Shown here piece after piece: positions 20,300-49,300 of a stretch of 64,000 nucleotides of DNA. The notes under the pieces are model-generated. The model worked only from the letters and a program-made list of their open reading frames with translations, searched no databases and was not told the DNA's origin. Source of the stretch: Amphiscolops sp. MND2022 (lineage: Eukaryota); contig OZ076409.1 of assembly GCA_964187785.1 (NCBI GenBank), forward strand, positions 53,260,001 to 53,324,000, in the 5' to 3' direction. Positions within the stretch are counted from its first letter, which is position 1; each line of letters starts with the position of its first letter. The position numbers were made by a program, and so were the translations under genes.

Positions 20300-20820
20300 G
20301 GGATTCTGGACGTTTCGGCGACAATATAGCGGCGGACGTTTCGGCGACAACACTGTCGCCGAACCGTCTTCTAAAAGCTAAAAACAAAAACGAAATACGG
20401 GGAACAGGATTAACGTCTGAGGAATGACGTCTAAAAAGAGGAATAACGTCTAAAAGCAATTACAATATTTTCAAAACTTTCCCCCCACCTAAGATGGGGT
20501 CATATACGGCGTATAGATGCTCGCCCTCACCGTCGCAAAGACCAGCTCCCACTACAATAGCTGGGGGATCTCCGTTCCCGCTAGGTCTTTGCTCCTGTTC
20601 GACCCCGCTCAGGAAGATAGGAACAGAAGCGGCCCCAAGAGGCCGCGAGACGCTAGAGGAAATGGGGACATACCCAAGGCACGTTTCAATGTAGCAAAGG
20701 TAACTATGAAGAGATATCTTTCTAGCTTTTTCGCGGACGTTTCGGGGACAAAGATGTTTCGGCGAGAGTGTTGTCGCCGAAACGTCCGCCGCCATATTGT
20801 CGGCGAACCGTCTTGTTCCC
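20300..20820. mobile_element. TIR element (MITE) with 'gacgtttcggcgaca' repeats and the shared GC-rich core
   Basis: ~65-bp imperfect TIRs with GGG...CCC ends. Degenerate ~8-bp TSD tcaactgc/acgactgc. Inverted copy at 37859-38379. Confidence 0.8.
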
Positions 20821-20936
20821 ACGACTGCGTACCTTCCTTGAAGAAAGTATCATCGAGGAAGAACAAAAAGGGTTTCGAAGATGGAACACCATTAGATCCC
20901 TCTATAGACTTGATTTCGAATGTGAATGGGTAAAAA

Positions 20937-21383
20937 CGGAGTTCGAAGCTTCGACATTTTGACTAATTGAACTTCGAAAAGTCGGAGTATCAGTATTCGA
21001 TTCGAATTCGATAAACTCTCGAAGTTTCAATTCGATAGCAAAAATCCTGAATTCGAAAATTATCAATAATGCATAAACGCTGATTGGTGGGGATGTTGTC
21101 CTCAAATTCCGCGTAAAAATGATCGTATGCTTTACTTCGACGGTCCGTTACGATCCGCCATTTACTATTTCCGGTCATGTGCAACCTAAAAATTTTGCTT
21201 GCATCATTCACTTTAATTTGTGAATTTTATTCGAACAGTATTTGATATTCGAAACATATCTCATTATCCGCAAGATTTATTCGATATTCGATTCGATATT
21301 CAACAACTTTTCGAAGCTTCGATTCGATATTCGAAAGCAAGGCGAAGCTTCGACTATTCGACCGAATATTCGAATTCTCTATG
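20937..21383. mobile_element. MITE-like insertion with TTCGAA/ATTCGA arrays at both ends
   Basis: Interrupts the RT frame; dense ttcgaa motifs. Exact TIR and TSD not resolved. Copy at ~37278-37740. Confidence 0.65.
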
Positions 21384-21425
21384 CAAAAACGCATGAAGAA
21401 TCTGCAGCACTTCTAAACGTAGACA

Positions 21426-22068
21426 TTGTGTAATCTATGTACACATTGCGGAGGGATGTTTTTCACCCTTTGACCCCATGGAAAATGACCCTAGGATCCC
21501 ATAGACAGCCAAAAAAGACCCTATGACCCCGTGGAAGAGGACTCCATGGAAAAAGTAAAGGAAATACATGGAAAATAGGTAACAAATCACGAGGAAATCA
21601 AGGTCAAGTTAAAACAAAATAATGTGGGGTCATATTCGGTGCATACACGCTCACCCTCACCTAGCAAGATGGGAACATAAGCGGCTTCAAGGGGCCGCAG
21701 GGCACTACACGAAAGGGAGACATATCTGAGGCACATTTTGTACTGATAATTCAAACATCAACACAGAAATGAACATGCACGGGTAGAATATCAAATCAGT
21801 ATGGGGTCATAGGGTCAACATATTGTGGTCAGAGAGTCATTTGACATGGGGTTAAAAGCCATGGGGTCATGGTGTCAAAGGGTTCTATGATATGCCTCAT
21901 GGGGTCATAGGGTCAAAGTCTTGTGGTCAGAGAGTCATTTGACATGGGGTTAAAAGCCATGGGGTCATGGGGTCAAAGGGTTATATGATATGCCTCATAG
22001 GGTCAAAATCTTATGGTCACAGAGTCATTTGACATGGGGTTATGGGGTCAAAGGGTTATTAGATATGC
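21426..22068. mobile_element. MITE-like insertion with GACCCCATG/CATGGGGTC arrays and a deleted version of the GC core
   Basis: Inserted between RT codons ..NVD and LEKAF; motif orientation flips between the two ends. Copy at ~36562-37233. Confidence 0.7.
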
Positions 22069-22816
22069 CTCGAGAAAGCTTTCGACAGTGTGTGGCTAGA
22101 CAGCTTGATCTACAAATTGAAGAATCTGGGAATAAATGGGAATTTTTTTTTAAAAAGTGGACGCCTTTCTTCGTTCCAGAAAAGGACAGATTAACCAAGA
22201 TCCTTACACCTCACGTCTGTTCAGTAACCATTTTGAACTACCACAAGGAAGCGTTGTCTCACCTGTGCTATTCATTATTTTCATCTCTGATTTCCTAACA
22301 AAATCAAACGCTTTATAATTGCCGACCATTCTTCAGTACTTATATCCGGACAGAAAAGTACTCAATCTTTAAAGAACACCTGCTTAGATATCGAAATGTG
22401 GTGTAGACGCTGGAGAAAGGCTGTAAACAGATGGAAAACCGAAATTTGTCTTTAAATCAATTCTAATCACAACTACACACAACACACTGAAAAATCTTTC
22501 ACAAAGCTACGCGAAACTGACATATCCTCCGAAGGCATTGCAGCACCAAGTGGGGCATTACCCTCCCGATCATAGTCTATTTTTACCGATCTGTCATACA
22601 ACCGAAGTTTTATATGGAGCACAAATATGGGCACAAAAGAATATCAAATCACTACAACTCTTCCAGAACACTATCCTGAGATCGATCATCTAAAACTGTT
22701 TATGGCCACTGATTAGTACAGCTGAAGCTCTCACAGGGATCCAACCAATTGACATTTTCAGCCAAAGTCCAGCAGTCAAATTTTTCTTCAAAACAAGCAA
22801 ACAAACGACTTAATAC

Positions 22817-23035
22817 AGGCAGCCCACAGCCAAGCTTTAACCCAAAATCGCAGCAAAAGTTGCGTCCTCGGAAGTTTCTGGACTTCTGGAAAAGGCATTG
22901 TAAAGTGAGCAACGCCGCGTTGGTCACTTTAGAATGCATTTTCCAGAAGTCTAGAAACTTTCGAGGACGCATCTTTTGCTGCAAGTTTGTTTTGACGGTT
23001 GACGGTTTTATCGTTAAAGCTAAGCCACGGGCAGG
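22817..23035. repeat. Foldback/palindromic element
   Basis: 22850-22982 is a near-perfect palindrome centred at ~22916, with outer arms cccacagccaagctttaac / gttaaagctaagccacggg. Copy at ~35590-35810. Confidence 0.85.
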
Positions 23036-23659
23036 AGAAGCAACTGCGAACAATGAATTTTCTAGTTTTGTCAGGGATATAATTGAGAGTTTGGTCCAGT
23101 GAACTAGCGCCATTAAGAATACATTTATATAATTTCTGTAGAACCCTCTTTGCGGGAGGATGTAAATTTCGGTTTAGTTTTCAGTTTTAGTGAGCAACAG
23201 TTTGTTGAAGTAAAATTGTCACGGGTATGGTTCTCTTGCTGGATTTGATGAATTCTTTCGATATTTTGCAGTCGATATCGTCGAAGATGCGGTTTGCATT
23301 GTAGGGATTTCCCCTAATAAGTGTGCAGGGTTAACCAGCAGAGTTTCCATCGGTTCAGCCATAAAGTACTTAGATATGCGGATATCGATTCAGGGGTGTA
23401 ACCAATTTCGGTTGCCCATTGGTGGTCAATGTAGTTTAATTTGTGTCGCTGCAATGATTTCTTGATGACTTTGCTCAATTCCGAGATTCTTTTCCCATCC
23501 TTTCGATCTCAGTGCCCAGTGAGTCTTCAGCTGCTGATCCTTTGCTGCCGAAATTTGTTAACCATTCCGGTTATCTTAGCACCCGATAGATGTTTTTCGA
23601 GGTCGACTTTGTATTTCTCGATGACGTCAGGGCCTTTTGAGTTGTTGGACATCATGTCT

Positions 23660-23900
23660 CAGAATCAGCGTTTTCGTCTGAACATCCACTGCGAACGAGC
23701 GGTTCTAGACGACGTCAACCAATTCACGTATTTCGGATCTCTTATACCAAGCAATGGCGATTCATCGAGAAAGACAAATGCTAGAATTTGCAAGGCAATG
23801 GGGGCAAGAGCAAAACGCTATAACTTCTGGAAATCAAGAAACATCCCTTCTAACATCAAAAGGAAAATCTCGGCATGTGTCAGCAGTACACTCCTCTAGA
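23660..23900 (+). mobile_element. RTE-clade LINE RT C-terminal fragment
   Basis: LDDVNQFTYFGSLI...RICKA...FWKSRNIPSNIKRKI...VSSTLL follows the RTE thumb-region pattern. Copy at 34713-34950 (minus). Confidence 0.65.
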
Positions 23901-23906
23901 GATGTG

Positions 23907-23957
<51 letters not shown>
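23907..23957. repeat. (GTA)17 microsatellite, the LINE 3' tail
   Basis: Direct reading; lies ~70 bp beyond the ORF2 stop. Confidence 0.95.
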
Positions 23958-23958
<1 letters not shown>

Positions 23959-24028
23959 AAGACTTAATTCCAAGATTATGGAGTTATAAAATACGTACAT
24001 GTTATGAATAAAACGAAAAACCGAAAGA

Positions 24029-26878: not shown

Positions 26879-27746
26879 TTTGTATCCACGGTAACAGGAG
26901 CTCCCTTGTAGTAGAGCTTCAAGTTTTTAATCTTGAAGTCTTCCCTGGACTTCCCTTCCTTTATCATTGAATAACGTTTGGACAAAACCTCTTTCTCTAT
27001 TGCACGTTCTTGAGACGACAAAAACTTTTTGATGTAAACAGCATTTTGGTAATTCTGTAGATGATAACTACGGGCGAAGCATTGTTTTAGTAACAGTGGG
27101 TTTGAGGTTGTTATGAGTAAAGGACGACATGCTCGTTTCTCTTTATTTGCTGGGTTATGACTTCTGCCTAACCTACGAATTTCGGATACGTTGCCATCAC
27201 TAGAGAGTCCCATATGTTTAAGAATTTTGTTCACTTCATCCACATCTTTTTCAATTTGTTTCAAGTAACTATCTTCGGTTTCAGTAGAGCCTGTGATAAC
27301 AAATTGCATTTCCTTTTTTTCTTTAACAAAATTGCCACCAACAACATCACTATACGAAGGAATGGAATCAGCGACAGCTTTTGAAACATTTTCTTTGAGA
27401 AGTAGAGGAACGGTGTCTTTTATGGCTTTTGGAATAAGCTCAGATATTGACGTGTTTACTTTTGTGCTAAAAGAATTAAAAAGTGAATTCAACTTAGCTT
27501 CGGTTTTTGCTGATGCTCCAATTAAGCAATCCCCCTTGTCCAGGCAGGCGTCGCAGCACCACAAGCAGTTTCGCTGAGTCCCCAGCCACTTCACACTGTC
27601 GATTGAGAGCCCTACACAATCACCGTGGAACCAGGAATTGCAATACTCGCATCCGATGCCCGATGAGTCGTCGTCTTCAACTGTTTTTTACAGGTCACAC
27701 ATTTGGTTGATGATTTGGAGCACAATCTCGGTCTTCGATTTGCCAT
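26875..27746 (-). pseudogene. LINE ORF1 with PHD finger; 1-nt frameshift in an A6 run at ~27684-27689
   Basis: MANRRPRLCSKSSTKCVTCKK, then after the shift GIGCEYCNSWFHGDC...LWCCDAC (C4HC3). The C-terminal RRLGR..RPLLI..YIKKFLS..ER pattern is typical of CR1-group ORF1. Confidence 0.85.
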
Positions 27747-27812
27747 AACGATATATGAAACTATTTAATCTTGTGGTGTGAGAGCTAACCATTGAAACGC
27801 ACTGATATCAAC

Positions 27813-28012
27813 NNNNNNNNNNNNNNNNNNNNNNNNNNNNNNNNNNNNNNNNNNNNNNNNNNNNNNNNNNNNNNNNNNNNNNNNNNNNNNNNNNNNNNNN
27901 NNNNNNNNNNNNNNNNNNNNNNNNNNNNNNNNNNNNNNNNNNNNNNNNNNNNNNNNNNNNNNNNNNNNNNNNNNNNNNNNNNNNNNNNNNNNNNNNNNNN
28001 NNNNNNNNNNNN
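27813..28012. other. Assembly gap (200 N)
   Basis: Run of N. Confidence 1.
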
Positions 28013-31000
28013 CGTATCTCGTTATAGTGCGGACAGCAGAAGAAATAGTGATAGAGATTGTCTTCTGACTTTCCACATATGCACATTGGCGATTCACACT
28101 TCCACATGTTCCAGGCATATTCGGCAAAAGCAAAGGAATTCCCAATTACTAATTCGCAAATTTTATTGACAACATAAGGATCTCCAATAGTTAAAGGACA
28201 ACAGGTGTTTAACTGTGGTTGCGTGTTAGGGAGATATTGCAAGAGGCCTTTGTTTTGGGTGTTCTTCCATCTCTTTATCCAACTTTGTTCTATGAATTCA
28301 TCTATTTCGTGCTTGTTGTATTCTGTCCGAGTATCGTCATCAAGGAACTTTTTGAATTTACTTAACTTACTTTCTAATGCTGCAGCTTTACTTCGGTTGG
28401 AGATGTAAAGAGAGTGGGTATTACTCACCAAGTCATTGGCTCTTTTGGCTTTGATGACAAATTTGATTTCTATGGCATCATTGTAAATGTCCAGAGGGGG
28501 TAGTCCTAGCAGCGTTTCGCAGATGCTAATAGTAGGAGTAAAACTATGTCGAAAGATTGATTTGATGATATGATTCTGGACTCTCATGACTGAGCTTTTA
28601 TTTCTTTCAAACCATATTACTGATGCATATAAGGAATGCAGGTCATTTCGCCTAATGCCATTTCGCCTAAAAAATTAGTTGAGTCATTTCGCCTAAGAAA
28701 ATTAGGCGAAATGACCAAACGGGAATAACGTCTAAATAATCATGTTTCGAAAAAGGCTTTCTGAAAGCGAAAATATCAAAATGTAGGGCATATTCGGTGT
28801 ATGCACGCTCGCCCTCACCGTCGCAAAGACCAGCTCCCCCTACGATCGCTTCGCGATCTCCGTTCCCGCTAGGTCTTTGCTCCTGATCGACCTCGCTTAG
28901 CAAGATGGAACATAAGCGGCCCCAAGCGGCCGCGGGGCACTAGAAGGAATGGGACATATCCGAGGCACGTTTTCTATTTGTTTTCCACTATTTGTTTTCC
29001 AATTTCATGTTTTTTCCACGTTTCTGAAAAAAAATTAGGCGAAGTGACCAAAGTAAAAGACGTTTCGCCTAAAAAAATTAGGCGAAGTGACCAAACACGT
29101 TAGGCGAAATGACTTTAGGCGAAATGGCATTAGGCGAAATGACCATTTCCCCATATAAGAGCTGCGGAACAATGATAGTAGTGTAGAGGATATTAACGTT
29201 GGAATTGACAAGCTCCATTTGCATCTCAAAATTCTAGAAGCGTTATCCCAGCTGCGTTTAGCTTTGTTACAGATTTTTTCGGCGTGGTCTTTGTAACACA
29301 GGTTATCATCAATCAGGAGACCGAGAGATTTTGTAGCTTTTGTGATAGTGCACGCTTCATTGTTCAGGCTCGGCGCAGTTATGTTGTTTCTTTCCACATT
29401 GAAAACAATCAATTCTGTCTTGGAGCCATTCACTCCCATTCTCCATTTGCGGCACCACTGTTCGATCCCCCTGCAAGAGTGTTCGAGTTTTTGGGAGATA
29501 TCATTTTCATTGCAGCCTTGAATTAAAATAGCACTGTCGTCAGCGAACTTGTAGTGACACGGTTCCTCACTCAGAAAATCGTTCAAGAAAATTACAAACA
29601 AAAGTGGTGACAAGACATTGCCCTGAAGGACACCAATGTCTATTTTGAACATAGATGAACGGAAGTCAGATAACTCAATGAATGCTTCTCGGTTCTTCAA
29701 AAAGGTTCGTAAAATGCAGAACATTTTACCGTTTATTTTGTAATGTTTGAGTTTGTAAAGTAGGCCATCTATCCACACGCTGTCAAAGGCCTTTTCGGGG
29801 TCAATGTTGAGTAGAGCGGTCGGTGTTTTCATTAATTTAGAATTTTCCAGATTAAGATGTAGCCTGTACAGAGATCTGACTGTGTTTCTTTTACTTCTGA
29901 AACCTTCTTGTTCGTCCGCCAGAATGTTCTCGGTTCCCGTGAAATAATTTAATCTATTGCACAGCATACGCTCAAAGAGCTTTCCAAAATGACTAGAGAT
30001 TGATAGCGGTCGATAGCTGGAACAGTCGTCATATCTGTCTTTGTTAGGCTTCCTGATAAACACAATTCGTGATAAAGACCAGTGCCATACAGCATGTTCC
30101 CAACATGTATTAAAAATCTCCAACAGAAGAGTTTTCGCATTGACTCCCAAGTTTTTGATCATTTTGACGTGGAACCCGTCAGGGTCGAAGAGTTTGTATC
30201 AGAACATTGTTTCATTGCTTCGTTTAGTTCTTCCATTGTGAATGGTTCATGAAAAACTTCCGAAACATGCTCGGAAGCATCATCAAACGAGTCCAGATAA
30301 CCTGAAACTGTCCTTGACATTGACTCGTCGAAGTTGAGAGTTTCCAGATGTTTTCCTTCGAAGAAGGTCTCTTGGAATTCTTGAGCAATATCTTTTTTTG
30401 AGAGCAGCAGTTTTCCGTGTTTATTCTTGATGAGATCCACTTGGGAACTGCTTCCAGCGAACAGTTTCTTGTACGATAACCAAAATTCTTTGCCTCGTTT
30501 GTGTCCCAGTGTCTTCAAGTAGTCTTTCATCCAGGCAGACGCCTTTTCACTGAGTAGTCGTTTGAATAATTCTTTCGCTTCTGCTAGTTTTTCTAAATTT
30601 GCATAATTGGACTTGTATCGGAAGTTCCGACGCAGCTGCCTGAGCTCTTTACTGGCTATAGTTAACTCGGTGCACCAAAATGGTTTACTATGTTGCGTAA
30701 CTTTTTTGAAAGGAATGAAAAGTAGTTTGGCCTCTCTTAAAGAGTTCTTGAAAAACTCCCACATTTCCAGAGCATTATCTGAAGTTGTCCAGTCGAGCAT
30801 TTCAGTTTCTAGATGTGCGCGCCAGTCATCCCACATTGCTTTCTCAATCCACGGCTTCTCCTTGAAATAACCACTTTTCGACTCGACAAGAGAAACTAGC
30901 ACAGGCAGGTGGCCCCTGGAGGGTGCTCCAGTGAATAGTTCCGTATCTTCATCAGTTGTAAGCGAGCATTTGTATTGGTTAATGAAGTTTCCATAGCAAA

Positions 31001-32762
31001 TGCAAAGATCTATTACACTTTGACCGTTGATTGAGAGAAAAGTAGGTTGGCCATCGTTCAAAATAGTATAAGTTGGTACGAGGCTGATTAACTCATTTCC
31101 AAGTGCATTGCACTTCTGATCACCCCAGTATAAGTGTCTGGCGTTGCAGTCGCCAGAGAAAAGGACACCTTCCATGTGATTTGTATCTGCGTAGACTTTA
31201 CAGGCTTCAAGTCTTTTTATGAGTTTTAGTAGTTCACCTTTGTCATCAGGTTTTACATAAACAGTCGTAGTTAGTAGATTTAGGCCGCGGACATTAGCTG
31301 CAGCCACAATATAGTCATTGTTTTTGGTCTCTAAATCCTCTATTTGAGCATACGCCACATCGTTACGAAACAACAACGCAACCCCGCCTGTCGATTTCTT
31401 TGGAGTACTACTGAGAGTTGTATAATTGGTAAAGGCATTATCAGGAATTTGTTGTTTGGTTTCATTCAAGAAAACCACATCTGGTTTATGTTTTTCAAGA
31501 TATGCATTAATTGCAATTTTACTGTGATTACTCAAGCCGCAAATGTTGATCTGTAAGAATGATATTCTCCTTTCAGGAGCCATCATGCCATCCATCATGA
31601 TTTTCATCAGTTAGCCCTCGAGCGTCATAAACCACTTGTTTTTGTTTAATGTAAGTTGGGCACACAAGTGAATCCGCATCGTGAGTCCCTTTGCAATTCA
31701 TACATTTGCTTTCTAAATCTTTATTCGGACAGTCTTCAATTTTGTGATCTTCACTGCAGTGTTTACAGGCTGTTTTGGAGTGGCAGTTTCCGCTAAGGTG
31801 ACCGAATTTTTGGCAGTTGTAACATTGAATGATTCTTATGCCTCTCTGAACAAATGCATATGGCTGGTAGTAAATGGAATCCAAAAAGAGTCCCTCAGAT
31901 AGTACATTGTTGTATTGAAGCTCTGACTGGAAGGTCAGTTTCACCGTCTGCAGAATTGTTCCATCCGCTTTTACGAATCTTTTCACATAGATCCCAGGAT
32001 ACTTCTTCTGGAGAATTTCAGTAATATGAACCTCTTCTATCTCTTTCGGAACACTTTTTATGACAGCGTTTCTCTGCTCACCTCTAGCGCTAGCTTTTCG
32101 TATACTGGTTTTCGTTCCAAGATAATCAGCTTTCCAGTTGGAGAACACCTCGTCAGCCTCTTGAGAGTTCAAGAATTCTATGTGAATGTTTCCCCGAGCA
32201 GTATTGAATGCTACAATCAATTTTTTCATAAGAAAAATTTTTGAAAATGCCTTTTAATTTCAATGCTATCTCGATACTTTTGATTGCCACTGACAATCAA
32301 TATGGTACTCAAGTCTTTCTCTTTGTTTCGAGGTATTTGTTGTCTCGTAGAGGGCGAAGGTTTTCGGGCGATTTTAGCATTCTCTGCATAGGTGTTTCCT
32401 GAGGGGGTTTTTTCCTTGATGATTTCGATATCAGTTTTAATTGACATCAATAGATCAGTTTCCTGTTTGCGAATTTCACTTTCATTATTATACCATTGAT
32501 TTAACGTTTTTAAGGACTTCATGATGGTCATACCTTGTTTTTGCAAAGTGTCGTTTTCACATTTGGGACAGTACCAGTGCACAGCCGAGTACTTCGCCAA
32601 TATTGCCAAATCTTTCACTTCTATTCCTCCACATGTCCCGTGCCACCATTCAAAACAACCGTTGCAAAGAATTGAGTTCTTTTCTTTTTCAGCTACCTTA
32701 CTTTTGCACTGCGGACATTTTTCGTCCGAGGTGGATTGATTTCTACTGCGTGTGCCAGTCAT
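28013..32762 (-). mobile_element. Near full-length frameshifted LINE (I/Nimb/Jockey-like group)
   Basis: ORF1 is PHD (32226-32762) then three CCHC knuckles (31573-32229). ORF2 is APE (30159-31607), RT with YKFADD (to ~29160) and a C-terminal CICG...HYFFCC finger (28020-28587). Single-base frameshifts near 32240 and 30190. Confidence 0.9.
28634..29151. mobile_element. TIR element (MITE) with 'atttcgcctaa' repeats and the shared GC-rich core
   Basis: Perfect 8-bp TSD CATATAAG (28626-28633, 29152-29159). TIRs match perfectly after 7 mismatched terminal bases. Removing the element restores RT-region codons PQLLYAS. Confidence 0.9.
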
Positions 32763-34628: not shown

Positions 34629-37600
34629 ATCAGTGGCTTGACGGTACACTCTAATATCAAGAGAAAATAAATTGTTGATATCAGTGCGTTTCAATGGTTA
34701 GCTCTCACATCTCTAGAGGAGTGTACTGCTGACACATGCCGAGATTTTCCTTTTGATGTTAGAAGGGATGTTTCTTGATTTCCAGAAGTTATAGCGTTTT
34801 GCTCTTGCCCCCATTGCCTTGCAAATTCTAGCATTTGTCTTTCTCGATGAATCGCCATTGCTTGGTATAAGAGATCCGAAATACGTGAATTGGTTGACGT
34901 CGTCTAGAACCGCTCGTTCGCAGTGGATGTTCAGACGAAAACGCTGAATCTGAGACATGATGTCCAACAACTCAAAAGGCCCTGACGTCATCGAGAAATA
35001 CAAAGTCGACCTCGAAAAACATCTATCGGGTGCTAAGATAACCGGAATGGTTAACAAATTTCGGCAGCAAAGGATCAGCAGCTGAAGACTCACTGGGCAC
35101 TGAGATCGAAAGGATGAGAAAAGAATCTCGGAATTGAGCAAAGTCATCAAGAAATCATTGCAGCGACACAAATTAAACTACATTGACCACCAATGGGCAA
35201 CCGAAAATGGTTACACCCCTGAATCGATATCCGCATATCTAAGTACTTTATGGCTGAACTGATGGAAACTCTGCTGGTTAACTCTGCACACTTATTAGGG
35301 GAAATCCCTACAATGCAAACCGCATCTGCAGCCGCATCTTCGACGATATCGACTGAAAAATATCGAAAGAATTCATCAAATCCAGCAAGAGAACCATACC
35401 CGTGACAATTTTACTTCAACAAACTGTTGCTCACCAAAACTGAAAACTAAACCGAAATTTACATCCTCCCGCAAAGAGGGTTCTACAGAAATTATATAAA
35501 TGTATTCTTAATGGCGCTAGTTCACAGGACCAAACTCTCAAATATATCCCTGACAAAACTAGAAAATTCATTGTTCGCAGTTGCTTCTCCGGCCCGTGGG
35601 TTAGCTTTAACGATAAAACCGTCAACCGTCAAAACAAACTTGCAGCAAAAGATGCGTTCTTGAAAGTTTCTAGACTTCTGGAAAATGCATTCTAAAGTGA
35701 CCAGTGCGGCGTTGCTCACTTTACAATGCCTTTTCCAGAAGTCCAGAAACTTTCGAGGACGCAACTTTTGCTGCGATTTTGGTTTAATGCTTGGCTGTGG
35801 GCTGCCTGTATTAGGTAGTTTGTTTGCTTGTTTTGAAGAAAAATTTGACTGCTGGACTTTGGCTGAAAAGGTCAATTGGTTGGATCCCTGTGAGAGCTTC
35901 AGCTGTCCTAATCAGTGGCCATAAACAGTTTTAGATGATCGATCTCAGGATAGTGTTCTGGAAGAGTTGTAGTGATTTGATATTCTTTTGTGCCCATATT
36001 GGTGCTCCATATAAAACTTCGGTTGTATGACATATCGGTAAAAAAAGACTATGATCGGGAGGGTAATGCCCCACTTGGTGCTGCAATGCCTTCGGAGGAT
36101 ATGTCAGTTTCGCGTAGCTTTGATGAAAGATTTTTCAGTGTGTTGTGTGTAGTTGTGATTAGAATTGATTTAAAGACAAATTTCGGTTTTCCATCTGTTT
36201 ACAGCCTTTCTCCAGCGTCTACACCACATTTCGATATCTAAGCAGGTGTTTTTTAAAGATTGAGTACTTTTCTGTCCGGATATAAGTACTGAAGAATGGT
36301 CGGCAATTATAAAGCGTTTGATTGAGTTTGTTAGGAAATCAGAGATGAAAATATTGAATAGCACAGGTGAGACAACGCTTCCTTGTGGTAGTTCAAAATG
36401 GTTACTGAACAGACGTGAGGTGTAAGGATCTTGGTTAATCTGTCCTTTTCTGGAACGAAGAAAGGCGTCCACTTTTTTAAAAAAAATTTCCCCGTTTATT
36501 CCCAGATTCTTCAATTTGTAGATCAAGTTGTCTAGCCACACACTGTCGAAAGGTTTCTCGAGGCATATCCAATAACCCTTTGACCCCATAACCCCATGGC
36601 TTTTAACCCCATGTTAAATGACTCTGTGACCATAAGATTTTGACCCTAAGACCCTATGAGGCATATCATATAACCCTTTGACCCCATGACCCCATGGCTT
36701 TTAACCCCATGTCAAATGACTCTCTGACCACAAGACTTTGACCCTATGACCCCATGAGGCATATGATAGAACCCTTTGACACCATGACCCCATGGCTTTT
36801 AACCCCATGTCGAATGACTCTCTGACCACAATATGTTGACCCTATGACCCCATACTGATTTGATATTCTACCCGTGCATGTTCATTTCTGTGTTGATGTT
36901 TGAATTATCAGTACAAAATGTGCCTCAGATATGTCTCCCGTTCGTCTAGTGCCCTGCGGCCCCTTGAAGCCGCTTATGTTCCCATCTTGCTAGGTGAGGG
37001 CGAGCGTGTATGCACCGAATATGACCCCACATTATTTTGTTTTAACTTGAAGGCCTTGATTTCATCGTGATTTTGTTACCTATTTTCCATGTATTTCCTT
37101 TACTTTTTCCATGGAGTCCTCTTCCACGGGGTCATAGGGTCTTTTTTGGCTGTCTATGGGGTCCTAGGGTCATTTTCTATGGGGTCAAAGGGTGAAAAAC
37201 ATACCTTCTCAATGTCTACATAGATTACACAATGTCTACGTTTAGAAGTGCTGCAGATTCTTCATGCGTTTTTGCCTAGGGAATTCGAATCGAATTTGAA
37301 TCTTCGGTCGAATAGTCGAAGCTTCGCCTTGCTTTCGAATATCGAATCGAAGCTTCGAAAGGTTGTTGAATATCGAATCGAATATCGAATAAATCTTGCG
37401 GATAATGAGATATGTTTCGAATATCAAATACTGTTCGAATAAAATTCACAAATTAAAATGAATGATGCAAGCAAAAGTTTTAGGTTGCACATGACCGGAA
37501 ATAGTAAATGGCGGATCGTAACGGACCGTCGAAGTAAAGCATACGATTATTTTTACGCGGAATTTGAGGACAACATCCCCACCAATCGGCGTTTATGCAT

Positions 37601-38519
37601 TATTGATAATTTTCGAATTCAAGATTTTTGATATCGAATTGAAGCTTCGAGAGTTTCTTGAATATCGAATTCGAATCGAATACTGATACTCCGACTTTTC
37701 GAAGTTCAAATAGTCAAAATGTCGAAGCTTCGAACTCCGTTTTTACCCATTCACATTCGAAATCAAGTCTATAGAGGGATCTAATGGTGTTCCATCTTCT
37801 TCGAAAGCCTTTTTGTTCTTCCTCGATGATACTTTCTTCAAGGAAGGTATGCAGTCGTGGGAACAAGACGGTTCGCCGACACAATGGCAGCGGACGTTTC
37901 GGCGACAACACTGTCGCCGAAACATCTTTGTCCCCGAAACGTCCGGTAAAAAGCTAGAAAGATATCTCTTCATAGTTACCTTTGCTACATTGAAACGTGC
38001 CTTGGGTATGTCCCCATTTCCTCTAGCGTCTCGCGGCCTCTTGGGGCCGCTTTTGTTCCTATCTTCCTAAGCGGGGTCGAACAGGAGCAAAGACCTAGCG
38101 GGAACGGAGATCCCCCAGCTATTGTAGTGGGAGCTGGTCTTTGCGACGGTGAGGGCGAGCATCTATACACCGTATATGACCCCATCTTAGGTGGGGGGAA
38201 ACTTTTGAAAATATGGTAATTGCTTTTAGACGTTATTCCTCTTTTTAGACGTCATTCCTCAGACGTTAATCATGTTCCCCGTATTTCGTTTTTGTTTTTA
38301 GCTTTTAGAAGACGGTTCGGCGACAGTGTTGTCGCCGAAACGTCCGCCGCCATATTATCGCCGAAACGTCCAGAATCCCGCAGTTGACGCTCGATCATTC
38401 TTTCGAACAACTTTCCAATGGGGCCTGTTATTGATATGGGTCGAAAGCTTGTTGCAATCTTATCAGCTATCTTAAGACACCAATTGGTTAGACAAACCCG
38501 CAAAAGAGTTCGATAACAG

Positions 38520-39590
38520 AGTCACGGTTGTCCAGCGATTTCCAGATTCCAGTGAAAAGTGAAACGTCAATACAATCCATAACTTACTCCAGACTTGTTG
38601 AATAGTTTCAGAGAAGAACTGAACCTCGTTCACAAGTGCCCTCTGAGCGGGTTATTGCGGCCTCGGCTCGAACATGTCACTACCATTGTCTTACTACTAC
38701 TAAGATCCTAGGCCATTACATCCTTGAGGCATGCTTAAAAATGTTCAGATCTTCAAAAAGAAATGAATCCAAAGAAAGTACTTCCTTCAATCATAGGTAC
38801 TTCTGAAAACTGAATTTTTTTAGTGTTTGCTAATTAGGAGTCAATGCTACTCAAGAATGACCTAACTTTAGAATGGGATCAGATATTAAACTCTTTCAGC
38901 GCCTCCCGGAAGTTTCATCAGTCCTTTCATGTCGCAATTGCTCACTAGTTTCAACACATTGGGTCCGAATTCCACCCTCCCCACATTGCATTGATGATTG
39001 TTTTAGACACTGCTAATGGATAAGAATGATCTTCGAATGTTGCTCAATCAATTGTTGTGGCTAGAAAGGAAACATGAAGATCATCCTCATCGTGAACTGA
39101 TTTTTTTCACTTGCCATGTTTTGATGATTTTACACCAATCTGCGCCACGAAAAGAAATAGATACCAAAATTCTATTCACCATCAGTATGAGCGGTGGTAA
39201 AGTTTTGGATTCAGTCTGTGAAGAAGATCTCAATAAACGAGTTGCTCAATTGTTGAAAACTTTCACTGTTTACGCTGCGTCCACTGAGCCAGAAGTTCAG
39301 AAATCTGCTGCTCGGATTGTCAAAGATTGCTGTTTTGAGATTTTGTTGGTTTTGAAACAGCCTTGTGCTATAGCTGCGGAATCAATTGCCTCAAATTGTC
39401 ATCATGCCTCTGAAGGTTTGTTTCTTCAATTAAAGTCTTTCATTTGCAATAAGGACCAATTTTTCGTGAAAATTTGAACAATTTTCTCACCACGGCATGT
39501 TTAGCGCTGCTGAATGTTATTTATAGTTATATCTAGATGTCTGAGTATTTCTGGGAAGCATTGTATTTTCTCTGGTTTGTTAAATTAAGG
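38520..39590 (+). pseudogene. Degraded multi-exon helical-protein gene, copy 2
   Basis: Exon 39007-39415 is open. Flanking exon-like pieces (KILGHYILEACLKMF; ESMLLKNDLTLEWDQILNSF; IFRENLNNFLTTACLALLNVIY) are separated by short GT-AG candidates and contain stops. Confidence 0.5.
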
Positions 39591-40424
39591 TAAACCCCTA
39601 TGTCACCGAATTTCTGAGGTTTTCCCCAACGTAGTTTTCTCCATCGGTAGAAGTAAAGGAAACAAAAGTGAATTGTTGCAATAGAAAATCCCTTGAGTTC
39701 TTTGGCATTTTATTTATTGGAAACTACTTCATAATGAGACTTCGTACTGGCTCTCTTGAGTTTTCAGGCAGAGCTTTTGTTGAAAGTGCAGACTTAAGTA
39801 GTGGCTAAGACCATGAACTGACAAAAATTTCGTGCGTAAGCTGAAATATCATTGTAATGCGGCCATCCCACTTTCACTTGCTAAAAGATAACAATTTATT
39901 TGCACTTAGCTTCAAAGTAGTGATATTACCCAACAAGACGGCGCCCCACTTAAGGCTCAAAAAGTGCAGAATTATTAAAATATACCCAGGACTTTTTCAT
40001 GAGATCTTTTCGTACTCGGAAAGCGAATATATATCTTAACATCCAATTTGTTGCAAAATATAAAAAAAGAAGGGGGCCCTTTGGAGACATCCAAAATATC
40101 TAGAAAAAATTCTCAGTGCCGAAAGGGGACCCCTTAGTCTCGTCCGGTTTTGTATGTTACACTAAAAAGGAAAAATGAATAAGGTGACCCTTTACACTAA
40201 CTTAGATGCATTTCCGAGGTATTCGTTTAGCTGAATAAACTGAACAAAATTTAGAATTGCGTCGCATTCCTAACTGTCGTGGAGAAAAACAAACAAGTAG
40301 TAACTGTAATCAGTCGGGATTTTTCATTCTAAATGCCAAGGTTGCGATTAGACATGTTTCTTGTTTTACAGTGGAAGCCGCTAATATGGGACGCTCGGGA
40401 CCGGGTATTCTTGTCTACTATATC

Positions 40425-41724
40425 CAGTGAATTGTACACGATACACGATTTTTTGCTTCTTTAATACACGAACCTACACGATACACGATTTTTTGAAATA
40501 TACACGAAATTACATTGAGCACGCGAATGTGGCAGTTGAGCGTATGAACTGAATTGTATGAATTACGTAACTGAATTTTCATTGGCTCAAAATAGTGCAG
40601 GATGCAATTCATTTAAACAGCATTCAGGCGTGATTAATATTAACGCCATAGCCTTTCACACCTTATACGTCTATGTATATTAACTTAATCGCTTTTTCAG
40701 ATAAATGGCTCGTGCAAATTATGATTCTTTATTTATAATACCTGAACAATTTACGGAAGGTAAACCGGCAGTTTGTCGATTTTGCAAAAAAAGCTGTCAG
40801 TATAGCAAAAATACGAAGGGCAATTTATTAATTTATAAAAGCACTACCAACAGCTACATCCCAAAGAACTTGATTTACATCTGAAACAAACAAAAAATGT
40901 AATTGGGTCTTCAAAACAAGGCACGATCAAAGTAATAGAAAATTCTCTTACCACTGATAAGCCTGTTTACTCAAAACAATCTGCAATTGAGAAATCAATC
41001 GCAAAAGATCTTTGCGCGAAAGGAGCCTTGCCTATCACTATTGTCGAACGTAAGTTTTTCCGTGACTTTTTGGGTACCATTCAGCCTTTATTCAGGAATA
41101 TGTCCTATCGAAAAAATGTCGCAAATCTAGCAAATGAAGCGCAACGAATCCAGGTTGTTTTGAGAGAAGATATCAAATCAACAGGAAGACGCCCAACAGT
41201 TACGGTTGATTGTTGGACTGCACAAAATCACGTCTCGTATCTGGGTGGCATACACAGTCAAAATTACGCAAATTATCGGATTTTGCTGTTATGAGTTCAT
41301 CTCGCTCTAGCGATTGGAAGACGTTCATGTCTCAATATTTGACCTCTGGTCCCGTTTTGGTTGATCCATTTACATTTTGGGACGCAGAAAATGTGCCAGT
41401 ATTGTTCAAAAAACTGATTCTGGAAGTCTTAGCCATTCCCGCAAGCTCAGGAGCAGTCGAAAGGCTATTTTCCCAATGTAACATACGATGCGCAAACAGA
41501 AGAAACCGTATGTCGCAAAAAAACTTGGAAATTTTGGTTCAAATTGCTGTTTATAATGAGTAAATTGAAATTCAAACTTTCGTAATTCTTTTATTTTTCA
41601 GAGAAAAATACACGAAGATACACGATTATACACGAAAATACACGATTTTTTAAAATACACGAATACACGTAACGGTTTTTGCAAATACACGATACACGAA
41701 AATTTTGATAACGACAATTCACTG
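40425..41724 (+). mobile_element. Non-autonomous internally deleted hAT transposon (1300 bp)
   Basis: 11-bp TIR CAGTGAATTGT, perfect 8-bp TSD ACTATATC and ACACGA subterminal repeats. Encodes a BED finger, TVDCWT (first catalytic D) and the dimerisation motif IPASSGAVERLFS. Confidence 0.95.
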
Positions 41725-42019
41725 ACTATATCCGTTGTCTCTTACATCAGTAGTACAAAGGACCGGTCCAAGGGACCGAAATATGCGCGCCAATTAAGCG
41801 TTGTCTCATACGCGTATCCCATTGTAGCGACTTCCACTATAGTTTTTTCGCCGAATCTCGTCCTTTCTGTCGGGGCATTTCAATTAAAATCTGAAAGAAA
41901 AATTTAAAATTACTAATAACAGAAGACATAAGGTTGATATCATAAAACTGTAGTAGAAAGAAAACAAAATTAACATTTTTTCAGTGCTGTTTGAAATTTT
42001 TTTGTCCCTTGTTCAAAAA

Positions 42020-42465
42020 ATCTGTTTGAAACAATGCCAACATTGCCAAAAGCTCCGGCTAAAAAAAAAGGTTACACGCGCAAAGAGCAAATTGTTTTTT
42101 CTCCCGACCTTTCAATGAAAATTTCAAATTTCTCAAACTGTTTATACGATATTCATAAAAATTTGCACAATCATTCTACACCCAAATGGGCCCCTGCGTG
42201 CGCAAAAGTATCAAAATCGAATGCCTGGGATGCGAGAAACATAGCCAAAATTAACCCAAAAACGGCCAAAAAACAGCCATTTTCGACTTTTTTCGATTCT
42301 CTCAAAAACTCTCCAAACAATTCGAACTAAATTTTGTAGTCTCTCTACACCATAATATGATCCTATGTGTTCAATTTCAATAAGTTCGTATGACTGGGAT
42401 TCGAGCGAGTCAGAAGGACAAAGACCTAATTCGACTCTTTTACCGCATATGCGGCTCTGGTTTAG
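42020..42465 (-). mobile_element. Dispersed repeat family starting 'aaccagagccgcatatgcgg'
   Basis: Related copies at 46645-47085 and, split by the BEL element, ~53590-53922 plus 63245-63603. Confidence 0.7.
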
Positions 42466-43167
42466 TTTATTGTATTGACCAATTTATACTCATTTGATTC
42501 CAAAATTATTTGAAATCAAAATCTGAGGATTGTAATCTAGCGATGATTTTTTTTTCGAAAATATTGTATTACGAGCTTGTTTTTATAATTTCTGCGATTG
42601 CAGGAATAATATTGAAATCTGAAAGATGCCACTTTCATTTTTCAGCCGACTTGTTTGTGATCCGAGCACCTACTGAAAAATTCAGATATTTGGTTCGGCA
42701 GCTCCGACGACAATTCATTTCTCGTGCGATGAAACGAGCTAGTGTTAATTACGGGTAGGTACGCCGAGTTCGTTGAGATGAAGGTAGCGTGTGTTTGTAC
42801 GCCGAGTTCATAACATGAAGCGAACGATTGTTAATTATTCGCTTGCCGAGTTCATGATATGAAGCGAATGAGTGTTAATTATTCGTTCGCCGAGAGCTTC
42901 GCCTGCATTCAAATGCTAATGCGAAACTTCGTTTACGCTTAGTAGTTAAATTTTGTCAGTCCGAGAAAAATTAAAGGCTATGTAAACTGGTACAGTGGTT
43001 AATTTTGTGCAGGAGTGTTTAGTTAATCCAGATTCTATTGATTCATGAAAGCCTAAAAACAGAAATAATTTTGTGCCCCACAGGGACCTATTTTTGATTG
43101 TTGAATTTCAAAACTGTGCATTGATACATGTAATTTCGAGAAGCCTTTTTATAGAGCTCAGTATGTT

Positions 43168-43552
43168 AGGATCTTTAAAATTAGGATCTAAAACTAAAAA
43201 GAGATATAAAGTATAAAACGTGCCTCGGATATGTCCCCCTCTTCCTCTAGTGCCCCGCGGCCCCTTGGGGCCGCTTATTTTCCCATCTTGCTAAGCGAGG
43301 TCAATTAGGAGCAAAGACCTAGCGGGAACGGAGATCGCGAAGCGATCGTAGTGGGAGCTGGTCTTTGCGACAATGAGGGCGAGCGTGCATACATCGCATA
43401 TGCCCTACATTATATTTTCGCTTTCAGAACACATATTAGATTATAAAGGGGTTAGACCTAAGTATTTTAGATGAAATTAGATCTGAAAGTTAGACCTAAC
43501 AGTTAGATCTAATTCCATTAGACCCAAGCAATTAGTTCAAAGGCGTACACTC
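43168..43552. mobile_element. Left-truncated MITE-like element with TTAGA(T/C)CT arrays and the shared GC core
   Basis: Core at 43215-43410; duplicate at ~47815-48201. Confidence 0.7.
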
Positions 43553-45165
43553 CTTTACAGCCACCCTAAAAGAACGTATGCCTCTATTTATCGTAACAAA
43601 AAATTGGCTTCCTCATTCAATACCGCACTGGGCACAATACATCTGGACTTGACAACATCGGAAGAGGCTGACTCTGTTTTACGCGCATTGAAAAATGAAA
43701 TGTTTGGAAGTGATTCGTCCGCCCTGGAAGCTAGTAATAAAAGCAAAACAGCGCCGTCAAAGCAAGCATTCCATTGAAAATACCCAACTGAGTTCTAGCA
43801 ACAGCTCTAACGAATAACGAAAGCATTTCCAGTCGTCGAAGTCAGACGATGTGTCAGAAGTGGTGGTAAATCACTGCAAATTGTCATATTGACGTTCTCC
43901 ACAAACGTTCAGTTTGACAAGGCAAAAACCGACGGGGTTTTATTGAACATTTGCCATAACAGCGGCGCGAATTGATACAGCAAGGAATACGAATCCTCTG
44001 CTGCTATCGATGTCAGAACTTCGGACACATCAATTCCAATTGAAGTTTGAAAGTTACATGTAAATATGGCTTCAGCGAGCACTATTTCAACAACTGCACT
44101 GGTAACCAACGAGCTCGGTGCGCCAATAGCGGTGGTAACCAGGAGGCGGATTTATTCGTCTGCCCAGCTTATAACAAACAGGTACAATTAGTTCATGAGG
44201 TGCGTGGTTTGCAAGAACTTTGAGAAATCTTTCATCCAAAAATGAGGCTTAACCCTTGCTTCACCTTCGTGCATATCAAAATATGCGGCCTGAGTGATCA
44301 TTGTAAAATAGTAATGAGACAAAACCAACAACAAAGTAAAGCTGACACTGTTTTTTTGAGAGGAAACAAAACACAACTGTGAACAAATTTGTTTGACAAC
44401 TTCACAACAATCAGCTGTATGAGTAGAAAATCTTAAGCGTCGCAATGTTGTTGAAAATCACATCCGTCACTCAAGACTGAATCTACTCGAGGACACCTCT
44501 GTAGACAAAATTGTTTTGAATATTAGGCTTGACGCAATGAAGTTAGTTGTACCTACTTTAACTTTCGAAGTAGATAACATCAATTGACTGAAAATTAAGA
44601 ATGTGATAAAGAGATACAGAGTTGCACAGCTGTTCGTTTAGCGACAGAATCGAAGCAAAAATTAACTATGGTTGTCTGGCTACCGGAGCCATCCGAAAGC
44701 GATTATTCAGCTGATAGATCATCATAGTAGATGCTGTCAAAGCAGAATTTCACATAGGAAACACAAGGACAACTGTCTTGTCCGATGTGAAACAGATGCA
44801 ACTGTCAGTATCTCTAGAATTCAAGCTCCTATCAAAAATCTGGATTCACCAATATCGCGGAAAAAAGTGCGACCAAAAAAAGTAAAAAAGTCAAAAAAAA
44901 GTAGTAAAAAAAGTAGTAAAGTAGTAAAAAAAAGTAAAAAAGTAAGGAAAAAAACCAAATCAGACAAAAAGAAAGAGGCTTCGAAAACTAAAAGTGATTG
45001 AGAAGGTTAGTGATCTCTTTGCATACTTGGCTTTTGAAAAACCTTCGCTGGTTGAGAGACGTAGGAACTTGGCGGTGATGTACCACAATGGGTCTCAAAA
45101 ACAGAAATAACCTAAATGTAAAAACATTGTTGAGGAAACAGTAAGGAACTCAAAACGTTGTAACG

Positions 45166-46349
45166 GAATTGTATGAATTACGTAACTGAATTTTCATTGG
45201 CTGAAAATAGTGCAGGATGCAATTCATTTAAACGGCATTCACGCGTGATTAATATTAACGCCATAGCCTTTCACACCTTATACGTCTATGTCCTTATATG
45301 TATATTAACTTTATCGCTTTTTCAGATAAATGGCTCGTGCAAATTATGATTCTTTATTTATAATACCTGAACAATTTACGGAAGGTGAACCGGCAATTTG
45401 TCGATTTTGCAAAAAAAGCTGTCAGTATAGCAAAAATACGAAGGGCAATTTATTAATTTATTAAAGCACTACCAACAGCTACATCCCAAAGAACTTGATT
45501 TACATCTGAAACAAACAAAAAATGTAATTGGGTCTACAAAACAAGGCACGATCAAAGTAATAGAAAATTCTCTTACCACTGATAAGCCTGTTTACTCAAA
45601 ACAATCTGCAGTTGAGAAATCAATCGCAAAAGATCTTTGCGCGAAAGGAGCCTTGCCTATCACTATTGCCGAACGTAAGTTTTTCCGTGACTTTTTGGGT
45701 ACCATTCAGCCTTTATTCAGGAATATGTCCTATCGAAAAAATGTCGCAAATCTAGCAAACGAAGCGCAACGAATCCAGGCTATTTTGAGAGAAGATATCC
45801 GATCAACAGGAAGACGCCCAACAATTACGGTTGATTGTTGGACTGCACAAAATCACGTCTCGTATCTGGGTGGCATACACAGTCAAAATTACGCAAATTA
45901 TCGGATTTTGCCGTTATGAGTTCATCTCGCTCTAGCGATTGGAAGACGTTCATGTCTCAATATTTGACCTCTGGTCCCGTTTCGGTTGATCCATTTACAT
46001 TTTGGGACGCAGAAAATGTGCCTGTATTGTTCAAAAAACTGATTCTGGAAGTCTTAGCCATTCCTGCAAGCTCAGGAGCAGTCGAAAGGCTATTTTCCCA
46101 ATGTAACATACAATGCGCAAATAGAAGAAACCGTATGTCGCCAAAAATCTTGGAAATTTTGGTTCAAATTGCTGTTTATAATGAGTAAATTGAAATTCAA
46201 ACTTTCGTAATTCTTTTATTTTTCAGAACAAAATACACGAAGATACACGATTATACACGAAAAGACACGATTTTTTAAAATACACGAATACACGTAACGG
46301 TTTTTGCAAATACAAGATACACGAAAATTTTGATAACGACAATTCACTG
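45166..46349 (+). mobile_element. Duplicated hAT copy lacking its left TIR
   Basis: Right TIR acaattcactg and flank actatatc are present; the left end is cut by the duplication breakpoint. Confidence 0.9.
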
Positions 46350-49300
46350 ACTATATCCGTTGTCTCTTACATCAGTAGTACAATGGACCGGTCCAAGGGA
46401 CCGAAATATGCGCGACAATTAAGCGTTGTCTCATTCGCGTATCCCATTGTAGCGGCTTCCACTATAGTTTTTTCGCCGAATCTCGTCCTTTCTGTCGGGG
46501 CATTTCAATTAAAATCTGAAAAAAAATATAAAATTACCAATAACAGAAGACATAAGGTTGATATCATAAAACTGTAGTAGAAAGAAAACAAAATTAACAT
46601 TTTTTCAGTCTGTTTGAAATTTTTTTATCCCTTGTTCAAAACATCTGTTTAAAACAATGCCAACATTGCCAAAAGCTCCGGCTAAAAACAAGGTTACACG
46701 CGCAAAGAGCAAATTGTTTTTTCTCCCGAGCTTTCAATGAAATTTTCAAATTTCTCAAACTGTTTATACGATATTCATAAAATTTTGCACAATCATTCTA
46801 CACCCAAATGGGCCCCTGCGTGCGCAAAGGCATCAAAATCGAATGCCTGGGATGCGAGAAACATAACCAAAATTAACCTAAAAATGGCCAAAAAACAACC
46901 ATTTTTCGACTTTTTTCGATTCTCTCAAAAACTCTTCTTACGATTCGAACTAAATTTTGTAGTCTCTCTACACCATAATATGATCCTATGTGTTCAATTT
47001 CAATAAATTCGTATGACTGGGATTCGAGCGAGTCAGAAGGAAAAAGACCTAACCCGACTCTTTTACCGCATATGCGGCTCTGGCTTAGTTTATTGTATTG
47101 ACCAATTTATACTCATTTGATTCCAAAATTATTTGAAATCAAAATCTGAGGATTGTAATCTAGCGGTGATTTTGTTCGAAAATATTGTATTACGAGCTTG
47201 TTTTTATTATTTCTGCGATTGCAGGAATAATATTGAAATCCGAAAGATGCCACTTTCATTTTTCAGACGACTTTTTTGTGATCCGAGCACCTACTGAAAA
47301 ATTCAGATATTTGGTTCGGCAGCTCCGACGACAATTCATTTCTTCTGCGATGAAACGAGCTAGTGTTAATTACGGGTTGGTACGCCGAGTTCGTTGAGAT
47401 GAAGGTAGCGAGTGTTTGTACGCCGAGTTCATAACATGAAGCGAACGATTGATAATTTTTCGCACGCCGAGTTCACGATATGAAGCGAATGAGTTTTAAT
47501 TATTCGTTCGCCGAGAGCTTCGCCTGCATTCAAATGCTAATGCGAAACTTCGTTTACGCTTAGTAGTTAAATTTTGTCAGTCCGAGAAAAATTAAAGGCT
47601 ATGTAAACTGGTACAGTGGTTAATTTTGTGCTATATAATTTAACAGGAGTGTTTAGTTAATCCAGATTCTATTGATTCATCCTTTTTTTGAACATGAAAG
47701 CCTAAAAACAGAAACAATTTTGTGCCCCACAGGGACCTATTTTTGATTGTTGAATTTCAAAACTGTGCATTGATGCATGTAATTTCGAGAAGCCTTTTTG
47801 TAGAACTCAGTATGTTAGGATCTTTAAAATTAGGATCTAAAACTAAAAAGTGATATAAAGTATAAAACGTGCCTCGGATATGTCCCCATTTCCTCTAGTT
47901 CCCCGCGGCCCCTTGGGGCCGCTTATTTTCCCATCTTGCTAAGCGAGGTCAAACAGGAGCAAAGACCTAGCGGGAACGGAGATCGCGAAGCGATCGTAGT
48001 GGGAGCTGGTCTTTGCGACGGTGAGGGCGAGCGTGCATACATCGCATATGCCCTACATTATATTTTCGCTTTCAAAACACATATTACATCATAAAGGGGT
48101 TAGACCTAAGTGTTTTAGATGAAATTAGATCTGAAAGTTAGACCTAACAGTTAGATCTAATTTCATTAGACCCAAGCAATTAGTTCAAAGGCGTACACTC
48201 CTTTACAGCCACCCTAAAAGAACGTATGCCTCTATTTATCGTAACAAAAATTGGCTTTCTCATTTAATACCGCACTGGGCACAATACATCTGGACTTGAC
48301 AACATCGGAAGAGGCTTACTCTGTTTTACGCGCATTGAAAAATGAAATGTTTGGAAGTGATTCGTCCGCCCTGGAAGCTAGTAATAAAAGCAAAACAGCG
48401 CCGTCAAAGCAAGCATTCCATTGAAAATACCCAACTGAGTTCTAGCAACAGCTCTAACGAATAACGAAAGCATTTCCAGTCGTCAAAGTCAGACGATGTG
48501 TCAGAAGTGGTGCTAAATCACTGCAAATTGTCATATTGACGTTCTGCACAAACGTTCAGTTTGACAAGGCAAAAACCGACGGGGTTTTATTGAACATTTG
48601 CCATAACAGCGGCGCGAATTGATACAGCAAGGAATACGAATCTTCTGCTGCTATCGATGTCAGAACTTCGGATACATCAATTCCAATTGAAGTTTGAAAG
48701 TTACATGTAAATATGGCTTCAGCGAGCACTATTTCAACAACTGCACTGGTAACCAACGAGCTCGGTGCGCCAATAGCGGTGGTAACCAGGAGGCGGATTT
48801 ATTCGTCTGCCCAGCTTATAACAAACAGGTACAATTAGTTCATGAGGTGGGTGGTTTGCAAAAACTTTGAGAAATCTTTCATCCAAAAATGAGGGTTAAC
48901 CCTTGCTTCACCTTCGTGCATATCAAAATATGCGGCCTGAGTGATCATTGTAAAATAGTAATGAGGCAAAACCAACAACAAAGTAAAGCTGACACTGTTT
49001 TTTCTGAGAGGAGACAAAACACAACTGGGAGCAAATTTGTTTGACAACTTCACAACAATCAGCTGTATGAGTATAAAATCTTAAGCGTCGCAATGTTGTT
49101 GAAAATCACATCCGTCACTCAAGACTGAATCTACTCGAGGACACCTCTGTAGACAAAATTGTTTTGAATGTTAGGCTTGACGCAATGAAGTTAGTTGTAC
49201 CTACTTTAACCTTCGAAGTAGATAACATCAATTGACTGAAAATTAAGAATGTGATAAAGAGATACAGAGTTGCACAGCTGTTTGTTTAGCGACAGAATCG

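Follow-up and report, generated by a model that had tools for sequence, protein, structure and literature searches.

Why do transposable elements with different ends share one and the same interior? The question is raised by a stretch of 64,000 nt from Amphiscolops sp. MND2022 (contig OZ076409.1, assembly GCA_964187785.1; the whole stretch is referred to as the window), in which a preliminary description had noticed a core of about 190 bp in four families resembling MITEs (miniature transposable elements with inverted repeats), here named A to D. The core had been taken for either a separate small parasite or a conserved cis-module that is kept while the arms turn over. Based on sequence comparison, we lean, with little more than even confidence, towards another answer, i.e., a core that was inherited from a common ancestral element, was swapped between Mutator-type foldback families and has no mobility of its own.

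Copies of the core and their host elements

We identified the core copies of the window with BLASTN and nhmmer. Both recover seven copies plus one weak remnant, that is, the five places known before, two inverted equivalents and the piece near 52850 (Table 1). Cross-family BLAST E-values for the core are at most 1e-54, and full-length copies reach nhmmer E-values below 1e-66 with a profile made from these very copies. For the probable remnant, the respective E-values within the window are 7e-5 (BLAST) and 0.003 (nhmmer); no arm is seen beside it.

The copies are not all independent. A1/A2 and B1/B2 are part of an inverted duplicated block (19238-23906 vs. 39441-34706, 96.8% identity in a BLASTN self-comparison), and D1/D2 of a tandem duplicated block (40547-44885 vs. 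45162-49533, 96.3% identity). Since three pairs sit in duplicated blocks, we count 4 independent core insertions, neither 5 nor 7. This corresponds to 4 insertions per ~52.8 kb of unique sequence, i.e., one per ~13 kb. In all of them (4/4, with full context), the core is present once and in a central position. The arm motifs quoted earlier are present as well, and one core is indeed carried by elements with differing arms. The GC content of the core is 53-58% vs. 17-35% for the adjoining 40 nt. More generally, N gaps lie close to the large duplicated blocks 17682-23906, 34706-41123 and 40547-49533, whose identity is 96-97% and which may be uncollapsed haplotypes instead of true duplications.

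Judged by their anatomy, A to D look like non-autonomous Mutator/Phantom-type (type-2 foldback) elements. Here, we find the target site duplications (TSDs) of 8-10 bp, the inverted arms of 9-15 bp tandem repeats and the short outer terminal motif that define this type. In both A and C, 7 nt that are unlike at the two ends are followed by a repeated 15-bp motif, which is inverted at the opposite end. The arm repeats of B consist of an 8-10 bp motif within a 98-bp unit (the right arm of B1 is such a tandem unit), those of D of 8 bp at a 13-bp period. The target duplication of C is perfect over 8 bp (CATATAAG, 8/8), and that of A1 matches in 7/8 or 7/9 positions. For B, the element ends are approximate and the duplication is degenerate (6/7 to 7/9 for B2, worse for B1). 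The duplication of D is unreadable because only one complete arm is left; its truncated end forms a junction with 4-nt microhomology to sequence that is also found at 17161-17674. A1 is inserted in the reverse transcriptase of a dead long interspersed nuclear element (LINE), with reverse transcriptase residues 59-83 and 78-118 mapping to either side. B1 is found in the same dead LINE, and the insertion site of C is a LINE open reading frame (ORF) 2. The dead LINE (20200-22450; 36050-38460) bears three successive insertions, namely A, a core-less TTCGAA-armed element (~20905-21385) and B.

Table 1. Host elements, core copies and shared flanking sequences, sorted by position in the window.
Feature	Position	Strand	Description
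Element A1	20301-20820	+	520-bp foldback; GGACGTTTCGGCGAC repeat arms begin 7 nt inside asymmetric G-starting ends
15-mer in A	20440-20454	+	GGAATAACGTCTAAA, common to A and C; 54 nt upstream of core
Core in A1	20494-20686	+	193 bp, GC 58%; GCGAAGC hairpin replaced via five substitutions, outer stem intact
Element B1	21455-22069	+	~615 bp; GACCCCAT/ATGGGGTC arms; ends approximate, TSD degenerate
Core in B1	21622-21738	+	117 bp; ~77 bp missing, whole central stem included
Element C	28634-29151	+	518 bp; GGTCATTTCGCCTAA arms begin 7 nt inside asymmetric ends
15-mer in C	28722-28736	+	GGAATAACGTCTAAA; 59 nt upstream of core
Flank common to C and D, in C	28759-28776	+	18 bp, 18/18 with D1; absent from A
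Core in C	28781-28972	+	192 bp
Element B2	36562-37203	-	B1 duplicate in inverted 96.8% block
Core in B2	36916-37032	-	inverted copy of B1 core
Element A2	37859-38378	-	A1 duplicate in inverted 96.8% block
Core in A2	37993-38185	-	inverted copy of A1 core
Element D1	43164-43525	-	single complete (A/G)G(G/A)TCTAA arm, terminus GGGTCTAA; opposite arm truncated after two units
Core in D1	43216-43410	-	
Element D2	47813-48173	-	D1 duplicate in tandem 96.3% block
Core in D2	47865-48058	-	
Probable remnant	52845-52874	-	central part of core; 26/30 identical; N gap cuts one side

Kinship of shells and kinship of cores

We compared the shells, i.e., arms and spacers, separately from the cores. A and C are of near-equal length (520 vs. 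518 bp), and their arm motifs are 10/15 identical in the same register (p 0.0003). Both contain the 15-mer listed in Table 1, a match length that is attained in 0/1000 shuffles, and the shuffle tests of their flank alignments yield p-values of 0.001 and 0.003. C and D share the 18-bp flank directly upstream of the core (p 0.002-0.003) despite their differing arms. Apart from that, the spacers outside the core are mostly unalignable between families.

The cores are ordered differently. Identity is highest for C-D (93.8-94.8%), followed by B-C/D (85.3-88.6%), A-C (86.4-87.4%) and A-D (83.9-87.0%), and lowest for A-B (80.0-80.9%); duplicates of one element are 96.9-98.4% identical (96.9% for D1-D2, a value that C-D comes close to). 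That is, the shell kinship of A and C conflicts with the core kinship of C and D (94.8%), which points to common descent combined with later exchange through template switching. We thus infer that A and C go back to a single element with a subsequent turnover of its arm motif, and that the core was exchanged between families, since C combines an A-like shell with a D-like core and 18-bp flank. The possibility raised in the preliminary description that all four arm types are diverged descendants of one described family holds in part, i.e., the arms of A and C align as diverged relatives.

The following course of events would account for these patterns. The repeated arms of A to D would bind a partner transposase supplied in trans, which would excise the elements and reinsert them with an 8-9 bp duplication. 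The GC-rich core of 190 bp would be an internal module without mobility of its own that stems from a common ancestral element. As suggested by A and C, short arm motifs would have turned over in each lineage while the core was kept; as suggested by C and D, template switching in the course of gap repair or replication would also have moved the core from one family to another, for which the shared core itself would provide the homology. For repetitive foldback elements, template switching into the element has been documented (PMC8277862). The weakest step concerns the benefit of the core, which would probably be generic, e.g., that of a GC-rich spacer favouring the pairing of ends, and not that of a specific fold. 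Such a benefit is plausible because the core is GC-rich compared to its surroundings and because mPing transposition rose with GC-raising internal changes (PMC9921582).

Several observations weigh against common descent with exchange. The 39/44 nt that separate the 15-mer from the core in A/C show no alignment on their own (p 0.69). The immediate flank of A is not shared with any other family, and the B flank shows no convincing match to any other family (1/20 non-C/D tests at p 0.047). Common descent of the B and D shells is thus only assumed. In addition, the two edges at which homology to A breaks off are nearly those at which homology to B does, as would suit a selected module or a discrete unit. 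The shuffle tests disregard the arm repeats, such that significance is overstated, and with a sample of 4 independent insertions, one per family, family consensus and decay of the individual copy are inseparable. Finally, a scan of 17 of the 43 long ORFs in the window revealed no Mutator transposase or Mutator-like element (MULE) domain; because no partner transposase is among them, the superfamily is assigned by anatomy.

The coinciding edges also bear on the idea of a Pack-MULE-type capture, in which unrelated Mutator families independently took the same host or high-copy sequence during gap filling. Captured interiors do occur in this superfamily, e.g., the heterogeneous ones of Aedes Muta1 derivatives (PMC5225508) and the histone hairpin of Tm1-HH elements (PMC3169594). 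Independent random captures, however, should not have both edges in common, no parent locus is found in the window, and 0/7 translated core frames match Pfam. We consider such a capture very improbable.

Three details of the core sequence are added here. An imperfect direct repeat is found at both core ends (20494-20504 and 20662-20673; ATGGGGTCATA / ATGGGGACATA in A). Its sequence is that of the family B arm motif (arms at 21801 and 21899), and the respective 11-mer is found only in the A core and the B arms; the core may have originated inside a B-type arm. The heptamer AATGTAG right of the A core (20688-20694) is identical to the start of the C and D cores, which is either a coincidence or the trace of a head-to-tail junction. 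Furthermore, GTG and CAC enclose a loop of 4 nt whose orientation in B is the inverse of that in C and D (21640-21650 vs. 28800-28810). This is a typical template-switch mutation and hints at transient hairpin formation.

Fold, selection and mobility of the core

Next to common descent with exchange, the core could be a selected cis-module with a sequence- or structure-specific role (binding of a host factor, nucleosome positioning or a single-stranded DNA fold), such that its carriers amplify better with any Mutator transposase and new arm types acquiring it become successful families. Such selection would explain why elements with differing arms carry the same core in each independent insertion, why cores are 80-95% identical next to mostly unalignable spacers, why their edges coincide across families and why their GC content exceeds that of the adjacent sequence. 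Furthermore, internal regions modulate MITE mobility (PMC9921582), and the authors describing the CMITE families of corals speculated likewise (PMC2872659).

We therefore looked at what a selected module should leave in fold and substitution pattern. The core as a whole folds no better than shuffled sequences on either strand, neither as DNA nor as RNA (z -0.06 to -0.94). Its central nested stem of 62 nt does (z -2.7 to -6.3), a stretch that was chosen after seeing the fold. In C, the stem is located at 28823-28880, and its GCGAAGC mini-hairpin is read from the minus strand (28844-28858). This mini-hairpin, previously presented as a feature of the core, is found in 3/7 copies and two of the four families (C, D); it is lost in A, and the whole central stem is deleted in B. 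None of the 12 outer stem pairs differs between A, C and D. This can be read in favour of the module, although invariance as such says nothing for or against a selected structure. A single pair of the 35 tested is altered on both sides, from G-C to a U-G wobble, and 364/500 shuffles attain that count. In line with that, the covariation term of RNAalifold is +1.16, i.e., a penalty. Clustering of substitutions within the core is not significant (p 0.09-0.96), nor do dinucleotides show the 10-bp periodicity expected for nucleosomes (p 0.20-0.80). Rfam 15 yields no match at gathering score, with best E-values of 6.3 or worse around A, C and D. The covariation and Rfam checks proposed in the preliminary description are thus both negative, and of its cis-module the anatomy fits, whereas there is no covariation and 2/4 families lack the hairpin it names. 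Given these results, we regard a selected module as unlikely, but as one insertion per family provides low power, the core may still have a function.

A separate small mobile element that prefers the middle of foldback MITEs would likewise produce near-common edges and a single copy in each host. The TATA that borders the D core on either side, a left edge that is A-rich and a right edge that is T-rich in B, C and D, and the arm-less remnant at 52845 are compatible with it, and a short interspersed nuclear element (SINE) nested once within a MITE is known (MER6; PMC6887750). Against it, no TSD of at least 4 bp surrounds the core in A, B or C, and no inverted repeat of at least 6 bp exists between the core end regions tested. 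A complete solo core is not found in the 64 kb of the window, and the remnant abuts an assembly gap. Arm searches revealed no core-less A to D element in the window; a crude scan for further elements with repeated arms returned C and the B region and no others, and is too insensitive for counting core-less elements. The flanks shared by A/C and C/D leave room for at most one insertion event for A, C and D.

Known classes of mobile elements were considered as well. Helitrons and Helentrons are marked by a 5' TC and a 3' CTRR after a hairpin, or by inverted repeats in sub-terminal position together with a T run at each end. The core shows neither a TC start nor a sub-terminal inverted pair; a hairpin followed by CTAG exists, located ~30 nt inside the shared end (CTAC in B1). 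SINEs derived from tRNAs carry a tRNA head with A and B boxes and a tail. Within the core, ARAGORN predicts 0 tRNA genes, an A box is present in 0/4 cores and a B-box match in 1/4. By these features, the core does not qualify as an independent element with terminal inverted repeats (TIRs), a Helitron-type element or a tRNA-derived SINE. Since the core is without a shared TSD, inverted ends or a solo copy and homology runs beyond it, the core is probably not the separate parasite proposed initially, a reading that appears quite improbable.

Further searches were made for relatives of the core. A coding origin was rejected as unsupported, given the missing Pfam matches and the stops in other frames; in one frame, the string AIVVGAGL resembles what we take to be a dinucleotide-binding motif, which Pfam does not support. 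Ribozyme folds, compared by eye, do not match. Four patterns searched in viral contigs gave 0, 6, 1 and 0 matches, all limited to the pattern itself, and metagenomes gave one 20-mer match (L001) with dissimilar flanks. No core match was found in prokaryote genomes, nor in plasmids and phages at an E-value of 1. A literature search, which covered few subscription journals, returned neither Mutator-type MITE families sharing a core nor a follow-up on the CMITEs.

The remainder of the window is repeat-rich, animal-type sequence with remnants of LINEs and long terminal repeat (LTR) elements. Two adjacent C-GAA-G mini-hairpins at 16799-16830 (-) belong to an unrelated GC-rich stretch upstream of an ORF at 15863-16645 (-). 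The end of this ORF resembles what is presumably a telobox Myb domain, for which Pfam gave just a weak MCRS_N match. A mosaic repeat family is represented by three partial copies within 9012-13996, and the sequence at 11017-11080 (-) looks by eye like the head of a tRNA-derived SINE, where ARAGORN called nothing. Broken transposase pieces are located at 17622-18143, 40839-41560 and 45431-45919; judged by motifs we take them to be hAT-like, with nothing reported by Pfam for the two pieces scanned. Positions 54100-60600 hold an LTR-retrotransposon remnant with a DUF5641 domain, which is presumably BEL/Pao-like.

Published systems and implications

That the sharing of a core between families lacks precedent, as the preliminary description presumed, is not the case. 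The CMITE families of Acropora corals have differing terminal repeats and an internal region that is more conserved than the ends, the origin and role of which were left unexplained (PMC2872659). They are ~100 bp long, piggyBac-type, with TTAA as TSD, CC[C/T]T termini, TIRs of 13-14 bp and an interior of 75 bp (PMC2872659). As in CMITEs, the interior of A to D exceeds the ends in conservation (cores 80-95% identical, arms at best 10/15). In contrast to them, the elements studied here are 360-640 bp long, with repeated arms, G-starting ends, TSDs of 8-9 bp and a GC-rich, partly palindromic core of 190 bp. The published 60-bp CMITE consensus has nothing longer than 8 bases in common with the core when judged by eye without alignment (PMC2872659). 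Since CMITEs are piggyBac-type and reach a fifth of the size, A to D do not belong to them but resemble them in interior conservation.

The arms find their closest likeness elsewhere. Tm1 of Meloidogyne (Mutator/Foldback, Phantom subclass) shows terminal motifs of 7 bp that are asymmetric and lie beyond the inverted repeat, arms of 13-15 bp tandem repeats in variable number and TSDs of 8-10 bp; its non-coding Tm1-HH members hold the captured hairpin in their interior (PMC3169594). A and C resemble Tm1 in their 15-bp motif at offset 7 and the unlike 7-nt ends. Motif sequences differ, however, and Tm1 combines one arm family with several interiors, whereas here several arm families share one interior (PMC3169594). 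Muta1 and Muta5 of Aedes aegypti possess type-2 foldback arms of 9-15 bp repeats and TSDs of 8-9 bp, and the sub-terminal repeats of Aedes MULEs promote transposase binding and excision (PMC5225508, PMC5499845). The D terminus GGGTCTA resembles the Muta1 terminal motif GGGTCTACCC, with 7 bases matching (PMC5499845). Derivatives in Aedes share TIRs and have heterogeneous interiors, which is the opposite of the pattern of A to D (PMC5225508, PMC5499845). Our arm comparison with Tm1 and Aedes is based on the described motifs, and closer arm matches may exist.

A further parallel is provided by the highly conserved domains of SINEs, among which the V domain is nested inside the MITE MER6. As in the elements studied here, a central module is kept while the enzyme-recruiting parts change, and module exchange is one of the proposed reasons (PMC6887750). 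SINEs differ in being RNA-based with a Pol III head, which is not seen here, and MER6 represents a single nested insertion within one TIR family (PMC6887750).

This parallel allows for a further reading, namely that the core is an arm-independent transposition enhancer for Mutator-type MITEs, i.e., a DNA counterpart of the SINE central domains, such that the core and not the arms would be the long-lived replicator. We offer it tentatively and find it rather doubtful. If true, the core would outlast generations of transposases by acquiring new arms, and the four arm types and the density of insertions would reflect a very large, many-armed superfamily. Obtaining four arm types in four draws has a chance of 0.09 given four equal families and of 0.50 given ten. 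Excision assays in yeast exist for Mutator foldback elements, which makes the core a testable substrate between known arms. Even if the core is inert, it will cause unrelated families to be merged in repeat libraries built for this genome.

MITE families are defined and classified by their ends, and their interiors are deemed disposable; the opposite was described, and not explained, in one study of corals (PMC2872659). Within the literature searched, an interior more conserved than the ends is thus already known from CMITEs, and the Mutator-type case appears to be new. This second case, from another superfamily, with a longer core and with shell and core relationships in conflict, suggests that recombination can allow the interior of a MITE to persist longer than its ends.

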